Shown: positions 4,731-63,221, counted from the stretch's first letter. The stretch is 64,000 nt of DNA from an uncultured delta proteobacterium (GCA_963847445.1 CAWJZV010000022.1:1-64000), one strand, 5' to 3'. Notes: generated by a model from the sequence alone, not told the origin. Numbers and translations: made by a program.

Positions 4731-4937
4731 GACGAGTCTTCTCCAGCCAAACAAATCGAACAATTATCGTTGGCTTAACACCCCGGCGCGATTTGTGTCA
4801 ACGCCGTGACGGGAACGGATGAGATCTGTCATTTCCCTCATGGATTAATGTTTTCACCACGAAGTGTCATGAGCTTGCGCACGCCTACAGAGAATGAAAA
4901 TTGTTCGCAGTCCCAGAATCTATCCCTTCCTCAATTC

Positions 4938-55244: not shown

Positions 55245-56795
55245 TCATTTCGCCGCTTGCGCGGCGGCGCGCGCAGCTGCAATCGATCGCACTGTCGCCG
55301 TGGATGCCGACGATGGTGCACGACGTCAAGATTCAACTTGTCGAGGGCCGGGACAAATTCTTTAACTGCCGCGCGCCGGTCGCACTTCGCCGTTGCGCGG
55401 GCTGATGTGATCGGCCTCGATAATAATTTTCTCAGCCGGTAAGTAAATGACGACCAGGTCTTCGGCGTGCGGCAAGGGCAGGGGATGGACCTCGACGCGG
55501 CGCTGGCCGTCGGTGAGGATGCGCGGGCCGCCGCCGAAGGCTTCGATGACGACGCCGGTGGGCTGCTTCGCCAAGCTGTCCGGTTTGCGCGTATGCGGCG
55601 CTATGGCGACGCGGCGATAAAACTCTTTGGCGGCGAAGGGAACGACGAGGGTCGCGCCGGTGGCCATGAAGGCGCGGATGCCGCCGGCATGGTCGAGGTG
55701 GTGATGGGTCGGGATCACGTAGCGAATCGGCTTGTTGGGAAATTTGTCTTTGATCGATTGCACCACGGGCGCGGTGCGTTGGTCGTAGAGCGGTCCCTCG
55801 ATGGCGATCAGATGATCGCCCATCTCGACCACGATGGTAGCGTGGCCGACGCCTTGGATTTTGTGAACGCCATCGGCCAGGCGATGCCATTCAACCGACG
55901 GTGGCCGGCCGAAATCCAAGTAGCTGACGTTGCCGGCGATGCGGCGCAGTATCCATTGGGAAGCGAGCGGTTTGGCGTCGGTCTTTTCATTACGGGCTTC
56001 TGGCGCGATGGCAAATGGGTCGGCAGCGAAGGTGACGATTATGCTGGATGGATTTGATCTGTTCCTCTTGCAGAGGCTTTGCCGTTGAGTTCGGTGCGCA
56101 GACTGAACGGCAGCATCACCGCGCCGCTCTTGCGCCAATCGCCGTAGCGCAAAACATAGCTGCTGTCGCCTTCGAGCGGATCGTCTTCGAGTATGTCGAC
56201 CTGGGTGGGCAAATGGGTCTTGGCGTCGATGTAAAGATGAAACTCGTCGTGATTGTCGATGAAACTCAAAACATAGTTGCGTTGGCCATTCACCTCCGCG
56301 TCGGCGCGTCGGCGCAGTGAGCTGTGGCTTGCCGCCGTAAGCAATATTTTTACCGGTGCGCGCTTTTCCTCGCGCAGGCGGGTGGCCAAGCCTGCCGGGG
56401 TGCAGGCGAGTGGTCTTGGCCGGGTCCGCCGCGCCTTCGCGCAGCGATCCGATGCCGCCGTCGATGACTTCGACGAAGCGGATACTCTGATTGCGCGCAG
56501 CGTTGCCGCCGTCCCATTCCAGGCGCAGACGCGGCTGGGTCAGGTCGCGGGTGAGAGTGTAGCGGAAGGTGCTGATCTGCCGGGTCGGGCCGAGCGGTTG
56601 CGGTGTCGACGACGAGTCGAATTGCTTGCCTTCGCTCTCGATGACTTCATTCTTCAGCGCGCGCAGAGCGTTTATGCCGCCCATCGCTTTGGCGGCCTGG
56701 TCGACGATCGCTTTGGCCGATTGGGCTTGAACGGCGGTTGCTGGAATGGTGAGAGCGACCAATGTCCAGCCGACGCTTAACATTTTGCCGATCAT
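55245..56795 (-). CDS. secreted MBL-fold metallo-hydrolase (frameshifted)
   Basis: Signal peptide; THHHLDHAGG; PHAEDLVVIYLP. Confidence 0.87.
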
Positions 56796-56803
56796 GGTCT
56801 CTC

Positions 56804-57687
56804 CTAACGCAGCTGGTCGAATTTCCGCTGCGATACCTCTTCGCTGCCAAGATCGTTGCGAAAATCGTAAAGCGACGCTTCCCAAGAACCGTACATCGGA
56901 TTGGGCAGCATGAACCACTTGGTGCCCCATGTGTTGTGTTTAACCGCTGCGGCAGTACGTTGCGCCGGCGGGGTGCGGTACTCGGAGATGAAATCGGCCA
57001 GGTCGTCACCAAATAGCATGAGCACCCGGTAGGACTGGGCGATGTAGCGGCGCCGGCTCTCCTTGTCGCTGCCCCAGTCCGCCCGCTCGTCCGCGGCAAA
57101 GCACGGTGTCTAAATCGCTCGGTAGTTTGACTCCGATGGTGGCGAGATTGACGCCGGGTGGCCGCCTCGGTGGGATGATCGCGATTGGTGACGAAAAATA
57201 TCGTCACGCCGCGCGCTTGCGCAGCGGCAATGAATTCAAGCGCACCGGGAACCGCCGCGGGTTGGTTGCGCGTTTGCCATTCGCGCCAGGGGCGGCTCGA
57301 AAAGCGCGCGTTGCTGCGCGCCAACTGACTTTGGAAGGCGCCGGTGTCGATCACGGTTTCGTCGATATCCATGATTACCGCCGGGGGCAGCTTTTGATAA
57401 TTATCCTTCTGCGCCGACAGGGCGGTCCAGTTGGGATCGGCGAGGGCGCGCTCCAAGTGCGTCTGGGCGGTGGCGTAAATCATTTGAGCAAGCACGCGAT
57501 ATTCGGCTGAAGTGGTTTGCCATAGGATCGCGTCGAGCCGGTTGTCGGCTCGGCTTGGCGTTTCATTCTGCCGCGAGTTAGACGATGTCGCCGTACAGCC
57601 CGCGACAGTACTCAGGATCACCAACAGATATAGCAGAGGCCTGGCGGCGGAGTGATGACCTGTTCGTGAGGCCGATGGCATCATCAT
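56804..57687 (-). CDS. 5'-nucleotidase / class C acid phosphatase, lipoprotein e(P4) family (frameshifted)
   Basis: Lipobox VAGC; MDIDETV; VTNR; FGDDLADF; LPNPMYGSWE. Confidence 0.9.
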
Positions 57688-58769: not shown

Positions 58770-59304
58770 GGTGGTTTGGCCCGAGGCCGTAGGTAACTCT
58801 GTAGCATAAAATTAGGGCTGGGTACTAACTCTTAGCATTCCCAACGACTGCGTCCGATTGCCTGTGCGACAAAAACTTTCCGACGGCGCAAATGATGACG
58901 TCGAAACTGGGAAATTGCCTTAGGCGCCATCCTGGGTGAAGCGATCATGAATCGTTCCCCGGCACTATTCTGACAGGGCGAAGCCATGCGGCGACTTGAT
59001 GAAGCGTCGGACCGTGGACCTGCCTGCCCGATTTAACGATCCGGTGGTGCCGTTGCCTATGCGGAAAATTTCGTCAAAAAAATTCGCATAAATTTTACTC
59101 TGGCTGTCAGCGCAACGCCGCCGTGCTCACAGTGAAGGCCGTGGATTTATGCCCCAACAGGCCAGCTCTCAAATGAGATCGTTGCAGAGGGGACACGTTT
59201 GCCCGTGAAACGCGTGTGGAAATTCTGCTCCATTTGATTCCCGCAATAGACAACTCGGACCCGATTGCGACCTGAAATCCCATCGTTCTTGCCCGGAATG
59301 CCGC

Positions 59305-59320
59305 TGGCATCATTGCTGCT
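59305..59320 (+). promoter_or_regulatory. sigma54 (-24/-12) promoter
   Basis: TGGCATCATTGCTGCT = GG-N10-GC; predicted start near 59331, at the riboswitch 5' end. Confidence 0.65.
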
Positions 59321-59332
59321 CTAACACCAATC

Positions 59333-59409
59333 GAAGTTGACGCTGTGATCTGAAGTCCCCGACGTGGTCACCATGGGGCTCAGGGAGCGAGTGGTGAAAC
59401 CGGCAACTC
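59333..59409 (+). ncRNA. c-di-GMP-II-type riboswitch aptamer, copy 1
   Basis: P1 AGTTG/CAACT; CGC-TGTGA...GGA-GCG kink-turn; CTGA..CCCC/GGGG..TCAG stem; loop GGTCACC pseudoknots with GGTG-AA-ACC. Confidence 0.85.
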
Positions 59410-59428
59410 AAGGTTGCCGGTTTTTTTT
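59397..59428 (+). terminator. riboswitch expression-platform terminator 1
   Basis: AAACCGGCAACT-CAA-GGTTGCCGG-T8, overlapping the aptamer 3' strand. Confidence 0.88.
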
Positions 59429-59466
59429 GTTCGGTTTCGGAAATTGTCGAAGGGAGAGTCGAAACG

Positions 59467-59922
59467 ATGTTGCACCACTTGAAGGAAAACAAAGGCCAGA
59501 GCGCAGTGGAGTTCACCTTAGGATTTTTACTTCTCTATACCGTTATCATGGCTGTCGTCGAGTTCTCGCACATGTTTTATACCAAGACCACTCTACAGCA
59601 CGCGATCGCCGAGGCCGGCCGCTACATGATCACCGGCCAAGGGATCGACCATACGGGAACCAACCCCAACGCTCGTCTGCAAAAGGTCCAAGACAAATTC
59701 TGCAATAATCTGATCGCTACGGGTCTTTCCTGCGCAAATGTTTCCTCCCATCTTACGCTGACCTGTGTCGGTGGTTGCGCGCAGCCGGCCGGCGGTCCAG
59801 GTCAGACCGTAACTCTCACCGCGACGTATTCGAGAGGGTGGTTTACCGGGATGTTCAATCATCTACTGCCCACCATAACTCTTGTCGCCAACACGACCTG
59901 GAAAAACGAAGTCTACATGTAA
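59467..59922 (+). CDS. TadE/TadG-family minor pilin (pseudopilin)
   Basis: Prepilin site KG/QSAVEF with Glu5; hydrophobic helix; LQHAIAEAGR. Confidence 0.9.
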   Translation: MLHHLKENKGQSAVEFTLGFLLLYTVIMAVVEFSHMFYTKTTLQHAIAEAGRYMITGQGIDHTGTNPNARLQKVQDKFCNNLIATGLSCANVSSHLTLTCVGGCAQPAGGPGQTVTLTATYSRGWFTGMFNHLLPTITLVANTTWKNEVYM

Positions 59923-59940
59923 CCGACCCAGGAGATCATT

Positions 59941-60603
59941 ATGAGATTCTTACGCAAATACTTGAGTTCAAGAAAAGGTCAAAGCCTGGTCGAGATGACA
60001 TTTGGCATCCCGATGTTGATAGGTCTGGGTTTCGGGGTCATCGAGATCGGCAACATGATTAACTCTTATCTGGTGTTAACCCATTTGACCCGTGAAGCCA
60101 CTAACATTGTCTCTCGTCAGCCCGGAGCGAAGGGCTCGACGCAATGGGCGACGAGCGTCAACGCGGATTTGAATGCGGTTATCAGCAAGGCAAGCCCAGT
60201 CATTAACCCAACCGCCAGCGGAGCAAGAGGGCCGAATCAGTATAAGATTTACTATTCCCAGGTCGAGTGGAATCCCACCCCAGGTGTTTGCGGCGGTGAT
60301 CCCATAGCCAATGGCCAGCCGGATAACTACCGGATTCGCCGCAGCAACACGGGTTGGGCCGGCAATGTCACCTGGGAATATGGTTCCCTGAGCCATAATA
60401 GCAATTTGGGTAATGATGGAGATTGCGCCTACCTGCTTTTGCCTGAGGTCAAAAATCTATCCACACAGGGACTCGTGCTTCATGTCGTTGAAGTTTTCTT
60501 TGATTACGCCCCGAGTAAGTTAACGCCGGTGGAAGCTTTCATCGGTGCTCTCGCACCCGGAATTTTTTATCGCAGAACGGTTTTCATGGATGTTGTCGGC
60601 TAA
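59941..60603 (+). CDS. TadE/TadF-family minor pilin
   Basis: RKG/QSLVEM...P; LTHLTREA; VVEVFFDY. Confidence 0.9.
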   Translation: MRFLRKYLSSRKGQSLVEMTFGIPMLIGLGFGVIEIGNMINSYLVLTHLTREATNIVSRQPGAKGSTQWATSVNADLNAVISKASPVINPTASGARGPNQYKIYYSQVEWNPTPGVCGGDPIANGQPDNYRIRRSNTGWAGNVTWEYGSLSHNSNLGNDGDCAYLLLPEVKNLSTQGLVLHVVEVFFDYAPSKLTPVEAFIGALAPGIFYRRTVFMDVVG

Positions 60604-60647
60604 CCTGGCAGGTCGTGATGTCACGGAGATATGACGAGGAACAAATT

Positions 60648-61868
60648 ATGAAACAGAAAAATGAAAAGGGCCAAGCGCTGGTATTTATCTTGTTATTGTT
60701 CGCCATACTGCTGTTTATGGTTGGTTTGGCCAGCGACGGCGGGCGGGCGTACTTGGTTAGAGCCTCGATGGCACGAGTCGTCGATGCCGCGGCGATCGCA
60801 GCGGCTGCAAAGATCAATAGCGGCGGACTAACCGCGGCTCAAACCGCTGCCTGCGACTCGGCGCGGATGAACGGTGTCACTAACTGCGCGATTCTTGATG
60901 TCACCCAGGTGACTACCAACGACGCCGCGGGCAATCCCAAAAGCGGCGTCAAAGTCACGGCCAACGTTGCGACGCCGACTATTTTCGTCGCCGCTGGGAA
61001 ACTGCTCGGTTGCACCACTTGCAGTGTAATCAATGTCTCGGTTAGCGCAGTGGCGGCGGGGGGCGGGACTATCGATCTGGCCATGAACCTGGACAATACT
61101 GGTTCCATGTCGGGCTCCAAAATAGCCAATGCTAAGATTGGGGCGAACGCTTTAGTCACGGCATTGATGCCCAGCGGAACTTCATCCACCGCGCTGGTCA
61201 GCATGGTGCCTTTTCAGGGATGCTACAGAAGCAATACCACCGGCGGCTGCGTGGACATGGACGAGTATCCAACTAGCGGCGGCATGACTGTCTCGCTGAC
61301 GAGTGATGCCAGCCGGTTACATAGCGGCATCAACGCTCTTAGCGCGCCAGGCGGTTCCGGAACCAACGTTTGCACTGGGTTAAAAAAAGCGCGGGAGAGA
61401 TTGTTCCAGTCTGGGGTCGCGCGGCCTAATAGCCTTAGATATCTAATAATACTCACGGATGCCGAGAATAATTTTATGACAGGTCTCCCAACTGGCAGCG
61501 TAGATTCGGCATGTGTACCCTCTCCTGCAACGCAAACCAATGCAGCTAACCTAAACCTTGGGGTCAAAACCAACGCGCTAGCCACGCAAATTAAAGATCC
61601 TACCTCCACTGCCGACGGACAAACAGTTGGGCAAATAGTGAAAATTTTCGTAATTATGTACGGTCCCAACGCAACTGGAACCGTTCCGGCCAATTGTAAT
61701 GTTACTGGGTTAAGTAGTGGCACGGTGACAAGCCAAAGTTATACAAAGAACCTCGCGCGCTGCATCGCGTCCTCATCCGGCGATGTTTACTTGGCGCCCA
61801 ATGACACGGATATCAGCGCTGCCTTTCAGCAAATCATCAACCGATTACCGGTGGTCTTGGTTAACTAA
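60648..61868 (+). CDS. TadG-like pilin with a vWA domain (putative tip adhesin)
   Basis: EKG/QALV; DGGRAY...DAAAIAAA; MIDAS DNTGSM; GSGTN; ILTDAEN. Confidence 0.9.
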   Translation: MKQKNEKGQALVFILLLFAILLFMVGLASDGGRAYLVRASMARVVDAAAIAAAAKINSGGLTAAQTAACDSARMNGVTNCAILDVTQVTTNDAAGNPKSGVKVTANVATPTIFVAAGKLLGCTTCSVINVSVSAVAAGGGTIDLAMNLDNTGSMSGSKIANAKIGANALVTALMPSGTSSTALVSMVPFQGCYRSNTTGGCVDMDEYPTSGGMTVSLTSDASRLHSGINALSAPGGSGTNVCTGLKKARERLFQSGVARPNSLRYLIILTDAENNFMTGLPTGSVDSACVPSPATQTNAANLNLGVKTNALATQIKDPTSTADGQTVGQIVKIFVIMYGPNATGTVPANCNVTGLSSGTVTSQSYTKNLARCIASSSGDVYLAPNDTDISAAFQQIINRLPVVLVN

Positions 61869-61890
61869 GGATTACTGTAATATCCGATGT

Positions 61891-61965
61891 AGTTGACGCT
61901 GTGATCTGAAATCCCCGACGTGGTCACCAAGGGGTTCAGGGAGCGAGTGGTGAAACCGGCAACTC
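61891..61965 (+). ncRNA. c-di-GMP-II-type riboswitch aptamer, copy 2 (inside the operon)
   Basis: Matches copy 1 except 4 substitutions across aptamer plus terminator, including a compensatory G-C to A-U pair. Confidence 0.85.
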
Positions 61966-61985
61966 AAAGTTGCCGGTTTTTTTTT
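61953..61985 (+). terminator. riboswitch expression-platform terminator 2
   Basis: AAACCGGCAACT-CAA-AGTTGCCGG-T9. Confidence 0.88.
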
Positions 61986-62021
61986 GACAGACCGGCATGA
62001 CAACCGAAAGGAGATTTTGTC

Positions 62022-62570
62022 ATGATGACCGGTCGTATCAGCAATTCAAAAGGTCGAGCGCTGGTTTTGTTGGCAGTGGCAGTTCCGATGATGCTCCTGT
62101 TGGCACTCGGCGCCATGGAAGTCTCGCGCGCCATCAGCGTCAACAGCACTCTGGTACAGTTCACCCGTGAAGCGGGGAACTTGACTTCCGGTGGCACCGA
62201 GGTGAACCGCTCTCTGAAAGCGGCTATCGCCGCCACGTCATCGACTTTGCACGACAACAATAAGCAGCAGTGGAAGGTGATTTACTCCCAGCTCCGCAAA
62301 CAATCAGGCGACGCCTGTTCGGCGAAAACCTGTTTGTATCAGGTCGAAAGCCAAGTCGAGCTGGGGGATCTCAAAGGACAAAGCCATATCGGCGCGGCAA
62401 GAAAGCCGGTGATCATCGCCGGCATGGACGAGATCGAGCCCAACCGGATTTTTCACTCAATCGAAGTTTTTTACGATTATCGTCCGGAGTTTTTCAGCCT
62501 GCTTAGTAAGCTGATCGATCTAAAGTTCTACGAAAAAACCGTTTACACCGATCTCGCTGCGCTTCGCTGA
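62022..62570 (+). CDS. TadE-family minor pilin, divergent paralog of 59941-60603
   Basis: SKG/RALVLL; LVQFTREAGN; WKVIYSQL; SIEVFYDY; AAGGAG RBS. Confidence 0.85.
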   Translation: MMTGRISNSKGRALVLLAVAVPMMLLLALGAMEVSRAISVNSTLVQFTREAGNLTSGGTEVNRSLKAAIAATSSTLHDNNKQQWKVIYSQLRKQSGDACSAKTCLYQVESQVELGDLKGQSHIGAARKPVIIAGMDEIEPNRIFHSIEVFYDYRPEFFSLLSKLIDLKFYEKTVYTDLAALR

Positions 62571-62632
62571 CAAGGAGCGGGGGATGTCAGATGTCCTCAC
62601 AGCGCTCTTATTGGCATTAGAAAGTTTCAATG

Positions 62633-62667
62633 AAAAAGGGAGTCGGATTATTAATCCGACTCCCTTT
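62633..62667. terminator. terminator between convergent genes
   Basis: AAAAAGGGAGTCGGATT-ATT-AATCCGACTCCCTTT. Confidence 0.85.
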
Positions 62668-62701
62668 GACTTCCGCGTAGCGACCTGGCTAACGATCGCG
62701 C

Positions 62702-63046
62702 CTAATATTCAGTCTGGCGCGGCCGCTGGATCTGTTGGTTATTGCGATTGATCGTCTGCTGGTTCTGTTGAATCTGCTGCTGGTTCGCCTCGTACTGTTG
62801 CTGTTGTTCTTGCCCCTGCATGCGATCGCCGATCAAAGCACCGGCGCCCAAACCGACGGCACCGCCGATGGCCGCGCCGGTACCGGGCCGGCCCACCGCA
62901 GCGCCAATTAACCCGCCCGCCGCGGCGCCACCCAGCGCGCCGATACCCGCGCCTTTTTCACGAGTCGTCAGTGAACCGCCGGAACAACCGGCGAAGATCA
63001 TCCCAGCCACTCCAAGCGCCATCCATCGTTGGGTCATCACTTTCAT
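62702..63046 (-). CDS. glycine-zipper lipoprotein with a Gln-rich tail
   Basis: Lipobox FAGC; GAGIGALGGAAAGGLIG; AGGAGG RBS. Confidence 0.9.
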   Translation of the reverse strand: MKVMTQRWMALGVAGMIFAGCSGGSLTTREKGAGIGALGGAAAGGLIGAAVGRPGTGAAIGGAVGLGAGALIGDRMQGQEQQQQYEANQQQIQQNQQTINRNNQQIQRPRQTEY

Positions 63047-63095
63047 ATAGCCTCCTGTGAATCTGATGTGACTCAAAAACCTCAGTCTCTTTGAG

Positions 63096-63111
63096 AGCAA
63101 TGTCATTGCCA
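63096..63111 (-). promoter_or_regulatory. sigma54 promoter for the glycine-zipper gene
   Basis: - strand TGGCAATGACATTGCT (GG-N10-GC, TTGCT). Confidence 0.6.
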
Positions 63112-63221
63112 AACCGTTTAGCTCAATTTGAATGTAACTTGGTCATAATCGGGGAAGGATTGGATGTAATTTTAGCTGAATTTTTGGCCACTTTAGCGTG
63201 CCGTTTGGCTCAGGTCCGCGG

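Follow-up and report, generated by a model that had tools for sequence, protein, structure and literature searches.

How can the genes of one operon be made to respond differently to the same intracellular signal? The question is raised by a cassette of Tad-type minor pilin genes in an uncultured delta proteobacterium (GCA_963847445.1). The window analysed here is a stretch of 64,000 nucleotides (nt) of this genome (CAWJZV010000022.1:1-64000), and positions are counted from its first letter. Four co-oriented genes in 59305-62670 were assigned with Pfam, in the order tadE1-tadE2-tadG(vWA)-tadE4, where vWA stands for a von Willebrand A domain. A 94-nt element precedes the first gene and recurs between the third and the fourth. 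On balance we favour the reading that the cassette is an orphan Tad tip operon with a sigma-54-type promoter, twice gated by a transcriptional ON riboswitch of the class II type for cyclic di-GMP (c-di-GMP).

A repeated element of the c-di-GMP-II class

Pairwise alignment of 59300-59470 with 61856-62026 placed the element at 59335-59428 (copy 1) and 61891-61985 (copy 2), with four differences: 59355 G/61911 A, 59374 T/61930 A, 59379 C/61935 T and 59412 G/61968 A. Two of these form a G-C to A-U exchange in paired region P3; of the others, one is in the loop of P3 and the other in that of the terminator. The T-run of copy 2 is longer by one T, and the flanks of both copies are unrelated. The tadG stop codon (61866-61868) is separated from the copy 2 repeat by 22 nt. 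An earlier note, made from this DNA alone, had reported the repeat with these positions, this number of differences and this gap, and the alignment bears it out.

A distance of 2,556 nt and three genes separate the copies, which thus lie in different leader or intergenic regions. No further RF01786 match was obtained in the 7.19-Mb genome. An assembly duplication, which the earlier note had raised as a possible source of copy 2, was rejected: the sister species G003, whose genome was assembled independently, carries both copies at a distance of 2,528 nt and separated by the same genes, and both are also present in G022, likewise a sister species. The lone class I c-di-GMP riboswitch of the genome (G000:C15:72013-72108, 54.4 bits; G000 is the genome of the window) is located on another contig.

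The c-di-GMP-II fold that the earlier note had recognised was recovered with the Rfam models (Table 1), and the kink-turn letters UGA / GGA are present in both copies. For comparison, 20 genomes of the same family supplied 28 elements for an alignment; two of 31 places (one in G005 and a G033 hit without a locus) and a degenerate copy 1 in G022 were left out. In a self-drawn structure string of 23 pairs, 94.8% of pair cells were paired, compared with 31-51% in slid controls; one of the 23, between columns 10 and 63, is invariant and probably not real. Seven pairs were changed on both sides (one in P1, one in P2, five in P3). None of 500 shuffles reached the covariation score, a count that derives from related sequences and is thus not a probability. 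The pseudoknot (UCACC with GGUGA, likewise in copy 2) has five pairs that are invariant in 28/28 elements and so show no covariation in this set; its last pair is U-A instead of the G-C of the Rfam consensus.

According to the available part of PMC13715770, A69 recognises one guanine of c-di-GMP in structure 3Q3Z, G73 and A70 make other contacts and A61 stacks above. These contacts were transferred by spacing onto the consensus AACCG, which gave equivalents of A61, A69, A70 and G73 at 59390, 59398, 59399 and 59402 in copy 1 and at 61946, 61954, 61955 and 61958 in copy 2. Both copies read A...GGUGA-AACCG; all pocket positions are identical, and the four copy differences touch none of them. In the alignment of 28 elements no exchange occurs at the A69 and G73 equivalents, and 26 elements have A at the A70 equivalent. 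The assignment of both elements as c-di-GMP-II-class aptamers is thereby supported, and c-di-GMP would be the ligand.

At the Rfam gathering thresholds the near-identical copies (4/94 bases differ) are named differently, RF01786 and RF03169, the cut-off of the latter being only 40. This assignment of copy 2 to a variant family would suit aptamers that, as a specificity variant of the class, sense another cyclic dinucleotide, and small scaffold changes are described to shift specificity to cyclic GMP-AMP isomers (PMC13715770, part available). We consider such a ligand very improbable. The consensus lines of the two families differ in a triplet, GCA in RF01786 (UGCAACC) versus GAG in RF03169 (CGAGACC), and both copies carry GAA (UGAAACC). 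The middle base pairs in the pseudoknot, where a compensating change in the P3 loop gives U-A for the consensus G-C, and it is from this neighbouring base that the higher RF03169 score arises. The third base corresponds to A69; both copies have A here, the RF03169 consensus has G. The pocket, moreover, does not differ between the copies. By this distinguishing base, taken from our own reading of the two Rfam consensus lines, both copies are classed as canonical c-di-GMP-II and not as the GAG variant. A literature search for this variant returned papers that do no more than list its name.

Each copy is followed by a predicted intrinsic terminator. Its 5' arm (GAAACCGGCAACU) holds the A69, A70 and G73 equivalents and the entire 3' strand of the 5-bp P1. 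Since this arm is shared with P1 and the pocket, terminator and liganded aptamer are mutually exclusive. The minimum-energy fold of the full elements comprises P2/P3 and the terminator, with -41.6 kcal/mol for 59329-59432 (z -3.1) and -38.8 kcal/mol for copy 2 (z -2.7). Termination would be the unliganded default and the element therefore an ON switch. Terminator scan and folding thus agree with the earlier note, in which a terminator using the aptamer 3' strand had been taken to give an ON switch; each copy has the architecture of one, and the ON direction would be expected in vivo. For Clostridioides difficile, a review reports that class II switches act as transcriptional ON switches upstream of adhesin genes and of the type IV pilus cluster (PMC11477304, part available).

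Table 1. Positions of the predicted features in the window.
Feature	Position	Strand	Description
Sigma-54-type promoter core	59305-59319	+	TGGCAT-N5-CTGC; GG-N10-GC; predicted start ~59330, the first aptamer base
c-di-GMP-II aptamer, copy 1	59329-59414	+	RF01786, 53.9 bits, cut-off 53.5; E 4e-9 for the window (Rfam cmscan)
Helices of copy 1	P1 59335-59339/59404-59408; P2; k-turn; P3; pseudoknot 59368-59372 with 59393-59397	+	RF01786
Intrinsic terminator, copy 1	59396-59428	+	13-pair stem 59396-59424 (6 G-C) and T8; overlaps binding-site strand and P1 3' strand
tadE1	59467-59922	+	TadE-type minor pilin, 151 amino acids (aa); PF07811 E 4.9e-12, 46.2 bits; motif KG/QSAVEF
tadE2	59941-60603	+	TadF-type (second-position) minor pilin, 220 aa; PF07811 E 2.6e-7, 31.1 bits; motif KG/QSLVEM
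tadG	60645-61868	+	Large TadG-type minor pilin with C-terminal von Willebrand A domain, 407 aa; PF13400 E 1.8e-7, 31.8 bits
c-di-GMP-II aptamer, copy 2	61885-61969	+	Intercistronic; RF01786 53.4 bits, E 3.5e-10 for a 3.9-kb stretch; RF03169 54.5 bits
Intrinsic terminator, copy 2	61952-61985	+	13-pair stem 61952-61980 and T9
tadE4	62022-62570	+	Extra TadF-type paralogue, 182 aa; PF07811 24.9 bits, model positions 7-41 only; KGRALVLL
Operon-ending hairpin	62635-62668		Between tadE4 and the convergent glycine-zipper gene; perfect 13-bp stem
Glycine-zipper gene	62702-63112	-	Convergent with the cassette

Promoter pattern and the case for serial gating

Sigma-54 promoters have the consensus TGGCAC-N5-TTGC at about -24/-12. 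A motif of this type lies ~12 nt upstream of copy 1. The window holds one match to TGGCAY-N5-YTGC against 0.72 expected, which alone is not significant; the motif derives its weight from the comparative pattern and not from the window match. Relatives were scanned upstream of the riboswitch at loci including L042-L060, L016, L019, L027, L031, L032 and L035. GG[CT]A[CT]-N7-GC was found within -70 to -10 of P1 in 21 of 29 riboswitch instances from 20 genomes, at a background of 0.022 per 60 nt. The motif is present before 21 of 26 leader switches versus none of three copy-2 elements (window, G003, G022). Its position is -28 to -36 in 15 of the 21 leaders and -50 to -55 in six; the five leaders without it are L050, L027, L055, L059 and L016. 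On the plus strand of 59000-62800, GGYAY-N7-GC has its sole site at 59306-59319. The genome contains rpoN and 27 hits to the sigma-54 activator domain, none of the latter on the contig of the cassette. We therefore predict 59305-59319 to be the sigma-54-type promoter of the operon.

In genus and family, c-di-GMP-II switches thus stand nearly always behind a GG-N10-GC motif. This pairing would imply a two-input design, with an enhancer-binding activator controlling initiation and c-di-GMP controlling elongation. At one orthologous cassette that lacks the riboswitch (L078), a GG-N10-GC motif (GGCCCTGGTTTTGC) is located at 4884-4897, ~100 nt before the first gene, and the sigma-54 promoter may be older than the riboswitch.

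A scan for sigma-70 promoters returned no plus-strand site before copy 1 or copy 2 (4 sites versus 3.2 expected). The sole plus-strand match, at 61997-62026, was discarded as it overlaps the tadE4 start codon and is unable to serve tadE4.

In G003 and G022, homology between the upstream sequences of the two copies starts at the -12 box; where the -24 box would lie, tadG ends with its stop codon. A -12 vestige (TTTGCT) is retained, at a GG..GC spacing one base too long. Window positions 59313-59428 match the G003 copy 2 with 18 nt of upstream sequence at 91%. We therefore read copy 2 as a leader duplicate in which half of the promoter was not carried along. The A-U pair in P3 and the loop A are common to the copy 2 elements of G000 and G003, which dates the duplication before the two diverged. 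In the window the -12 vestige has diverged and now includes TAATAT (61873-61878).

From these elements the following sequence of events is proposed. Without c-di-GMP, the 13-bp terminator would take the P1/pocket strand and transcripts would end at ~59428. With c-di-GMP bound, P1 and the pseudoknot would retain this strand and RNA polymerase would read into tadE1, tadE2 and tadG. At the second copy, 22 nt past tadG, which would have arisen by a leader duplication starting inside the -12 box and lacking a -24 box of its own, transcripts would end at ~61985 unless c-di-GMP binds again. If read-through for genes 1-3 is f, that for tadE4 would be roughly f squared. By our own arithmetic, two equal and independent switches would leak less, widen the dynamic range and shift the half-maximal point ~2.4-fold upward. 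A threshold difference between tadE4 and the first three genes is thus probable, with the last gene needing the stronger signal.

Two complete switches with their own terminators are present; a single transcript through both is suggested by the lacking promoter motif before copy 2. The comparative pattern of promoter and duplication favours serial gating of gene 4, and we consider it more likely that tadE4 is co-transcribed through copy 2, with moderate rather than high confidence. The earlier note, which had seen no promoter before copy 2, gains comparative support here from the leaders and copy-2 elements; the TAATAT of the window is not conserved in G003 or G022.

This hexamer, the only feature here that might be a -10 box, lies 7 nt before the aptamer start and has TTGGTT 15 nt upstream of it. 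Together with the -12 vestige kept in G003 and G022, it could speak for a promoter belonging to copy 2 itself. tadE4 would then be a separate c-di-GMP-gated unit, and the switches would act in parallel, without a squared response. We hold this to be unlikely, roughly a one-in-six matter in our judgement: the site is not called by the sigma-70 scan, reads TCTAAC in G003 and TCTAAG in G022, and the vestige suffers from its spacing and from the tadG stop codon in place of a -24 box, in line with the absence of the leader motif from all three copy-2 elements.

Several further points, besides TAATAT, weigh against an operon gated twice by this class of switch. A promoter may conceivably lie inside tadG. 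The sigma-54 call is made from a motif and from relatives that lack independence. By score alone copy 2 is marginal, 0.1 bit under the RF01786 cut-off, and P1 has just 5 bp. The aptamer alone folds no better than shuffled sequence (z -0.16 for copy 1, 0.05 for copy 2); this is expected because the fold is pseudoknotted and ligand-stabilised, and it gives no support either. In the related genome G014, copy 1 carries an A.C mismatch at the exchanged P3 pair, and the pair is thus not strictly required. Copy 1 of G022 (L053 2439-2521, 32 bits) is degenerate, with both the T-run and the 5' strand of P1 missing. The layout is limited to 3 of the 31 genomes of the genus. The preferred reading remains serial control of a single transcript by both copies.

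Genes of the cassette and its relatives

tadE1, tadE2 and tadE4 all score above the PF07811 cut-off of 22.9 bits. In tadG, the VWA_2/VWA matches of Pfam cover residues 149-279, and an N-terminal Tad domain and a modular C-terminal domain are both present. The order E-type, F-type, G-type was found in 10 of 11 published related loci, the eleventh being incomplete; the loci of G035 and G065 were scanned too and are excluded from this count.

Four TadE-TadE-TadG cassettes are present in the genome, on contigs C22, C30 (~226 kb, L081), C48 (296-306 kb, L080) and C15 (~11 kb, L082), and riboswitches only in that of the window. The C48 cassette alone adjoins genes for a secretin, a CpaE-like protein, a CpaF-type ATPase, TadB and TadC; this core Tad locus runs off the contig end, and flp and the prepilin peptidase are outside the part seen. 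The other three cassettes are orphan, and that of the window is not part of a Tad machine locus.

The processing site of type IV prepilins has Gly before the cut and Glu at +5. tadE1 and tadE2 keep this motif and tadE4 lacks it, with KGRALVLL in the window and ASRKVALL in G003, where 8/8 relatives have KGQ[ST]-[LI]-[IV]-EL. The nearest relatives of tadE4 are F-type second genes of three-gene cassettes in other genera, with 36-40% identity; identity is 34% to the C30 paralogue and 24% to the tadE2 of its own cassette. Relative to G003, its amino-acid identity is 71% and its ratio of nonsynonymous to synonymous substitution rates (dN/dS) 0.26; tadE1 is 97% identical with dN/dS 0.05 and tadE2 has dN/dS 0.09, identities of the two being 95-97%. 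tadE4 is under relaxed, still purifying selection. The earlier note had described a Tad minor-pilin cassette, and the types of tadE1, tadE2 and tadG stand by Pfam; for the fourth gene, whose Gly/Glu motif is lost, the name of pilin is doubtful.

A complex of tadG, tadE1 and tadE4 was predicted with tadE4 as the partner and scored 0.56 (best of three controls, 0.00). The runs agreed in at least 76% of contacts, with a predicted local distance difference test (pLDDT) value of the partner of at least 69. In the benchmark, for which the use of self-made alignments renders counts approximate, the mark was reached by 58/80 solved complexes and 2/110 mismatched pairs; 7/80 and both passing mismatches fell at 0.60 or below. 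The model lends weak support to tadE4 acting in a complex with TadG and tadE1, and we attach little weight to it.

The relatives were surveyed for the synteny of the cassette, as the earlier note had proposed. Copy 1, three genes, copy 2 and tadE4 are found in G000 and G003. G022 has both copies and its contig ends at copy 2; this element shows copy-1-type bases and copy-1-type sequence past the T-run. Its tadE1 was hit in two overlapping tblastn segments, which suggests a frameshift. G014 has copy 1 and three genes but neither copy 2 nor tadE4; its operon ends in an ordinary hairpin, beyond which the same glycine-zipper gene lies. In two more distant orthologous cassettes, at L077 and L078 (tadE1 71-75% identical), three genes are present and neither nhmmer nor cmscan at E up to 0.1 detected a riboswitch. 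A c-di-GMP-II match was obtained in 19 of the 31 genomes of the genus, this genome included (the count also takes in G005). Beyond the family the class is rare: in a sample of the phylum, scanned with stricter filters, 5/150 other genomes gave single weak hits and none gave two. The arrangement thus appears confined to a few uncultured sister species.

This distribution bears on whether copy 2 mainly serves as the terminator of a three-gene operon, as a by-product of the leader duplication, with tadE4 decaying or re-purposed and no tuned serial function. The ordinary hairpin that ends the syntenic operon of G014 would suit such an origin, as would the lost processing motif and the faster change of tadE4 than of its neighbours. 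Yet the tadE4 frame is intact in both species (window and G003) with dN/dS below 1, the aptamer part of copy 2 is conserved as well (91/95 positions match between G000 and G003, beside a dS of 0.67 in the adjacent tadE4) and carries the compensated pair, and an intact binding pocket would be needless for a plain terminator. The conservation points to selection on the whole copy 2 element, not on the terminator alone, and we judge a mere by-product improbable.

If, as we prefer, both copies gate one transcript, a more specific outcome can be sketched. A sigma-54 activator would open the operon, moderate c-di-GMP would yield a three-part vWA tip, and high c-di-GMP would add an uncleavable tadE4 that competes with tadE2, holding the tip at the membrane or altering the priming of the Tad pilus. 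We put this forward as speculation and rate its chances as low. The change in tip composition that the earlier note had proposed is weakened by the missing processing motif and becomes only one of several outcomes.

The vWA part of tadG differs between sister species (37-41% identical, N-terminal part 86-91%; N-terminal half together with neighbouring genes 86-97%). In G003 and G022 this part (window 61100-61868; L045 3388-4008; L053 135-770) is in a different frame from the N-terminal part; G022 has two overlapping open reading frames (ORFs) of 173 and 206 aa, and G003 has fragments. Either module exchange at an exposed tip domain or assembly indel errors could account for this divergence.

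The hairpin at the operon end is 97% conserved in G003, and its 13-bp stem turned up in chance Rfam alignments. A luciferase-like gene is located upstream of the cassette in divergent orientation. On the minus strand, 55362-57687 contains two long overlapping ORFs (522 and 346 aa) with a plausible protein start followed by Arg/Ser/Pro-rich sequence; they look like frameshifted genes or assembly indels.

The same riboswitch class was observed in relatives before Flp-type pilin genes (L044, and L051, Flp-like) and before other genes (L042, L043, L048; L050, L027, L032; L047, L052, L035, L056; L054, L058). Kinds were assigned putatively, from sequence appearance without Pfam. They comprise small secreted proteins resembling spore-coat-U-type fimbrial subunits, with no terminator and a ribosome-binding site after the stem, and further a protein of at least 864 aa, small Lys/Gly-rich secreted proteins and lipoproteins.

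Relation to known riboswitch and pilus systems

Taken singly, the parts are known: c-di-GMP-II riboswitches, their use as ON switches of pilus and adhesin genes, tandem copies standing side by side with a sharper response, and several Tad tip cassettes in one genome. A second switch of the same class between genes of an operon was not found in the available text of tandem-riboswitch surveys or in targeted full-text literature searches, where supplementary gene tables could hold cases. The same limit applies to the pairing of a c-di-GMP-II switch with a sigma-54-type promoter, for which targeted searches returned no paper. Nor did the literature searches, within the text that they covered, return a paper describing the layout seen here, in agreement with the earlier note, which knew of no description of it for Tad pili.

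Tandem arrangements are defined within one intergenic region (PMC9481103; PMC12452182, available parts), and surveys that count tandem copies within one leader only will miss a further copy located inside an operon. If gating is indeed serial, duplication of a leader suffices to set different thresholds and leak within an operon, with no protein regulator. If tadE4 is in addition uncleavable as proposed, c-di-GMP would set the form of the tip as well as its production, and the locus would be an example from nature of a repeated riboswitch that codes for dose within an operon. Of the four tip cassettes in this lineage, one would have been placed under c-di-GMP control. The locus links sigma-54 control, RNA sensing of c-di-GMP and interchangeable Tad tip complexes, which are usually studied apart, and the stepwise series among relatives (no switch, one switch, two switches with an extra gene) is a natural set of constructs to compare.

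The c-di-GMP-II switches of C. difficile belong to the same Rfam family, follow the same ON logic of terminator versus aptamer and have pilus and adhesion targets (PMC11477304, part available). There, a single switch in a 5' leader precedes a type IVa-like pilus cluster of a Firmicute, whereas here an orphan Tad (type IVc) cassette of an uncultured lineage is concerned, with a sigma-54-type promoter and a second switch copy inside the operon.

Adjacent tandem c-di-GMP-II switches are described as pseudo-cooperative, with 59 doublets and 9 triplets (PMC9481103, part available). Mostly found before COG4932 surface-anchor genes in Paraclostridium, they likewise comprise two complete switches with their own terminators on one presumed transcript, and a sharper response is expected of them. 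Those copies, however, stand side by side in one leader and control the same gene, whereas the copies described here are separated by 2.4 kb with three genes, so that one operon would give two different dose-responses.

According to the available part of PMC12075869, TadE-, TadF- and TadG-like minor pilins from several paralogous clusters serve one Tad-type machine as interchangeable tips. In the Kil pilus of Myxococcus xanthus, the Tip is formed by KilL/KilM/KilN (TadF/TadE/TadG-like), and paralogous small/medium/large clusters share one machine, much as four cassettes here accompany one machine locus. Unlike in the Kil system, for which a riboswitch is not mentioned in that part of the source, the cassette described here has a fourth, motif-less F-type gene and a vWA tip domain.

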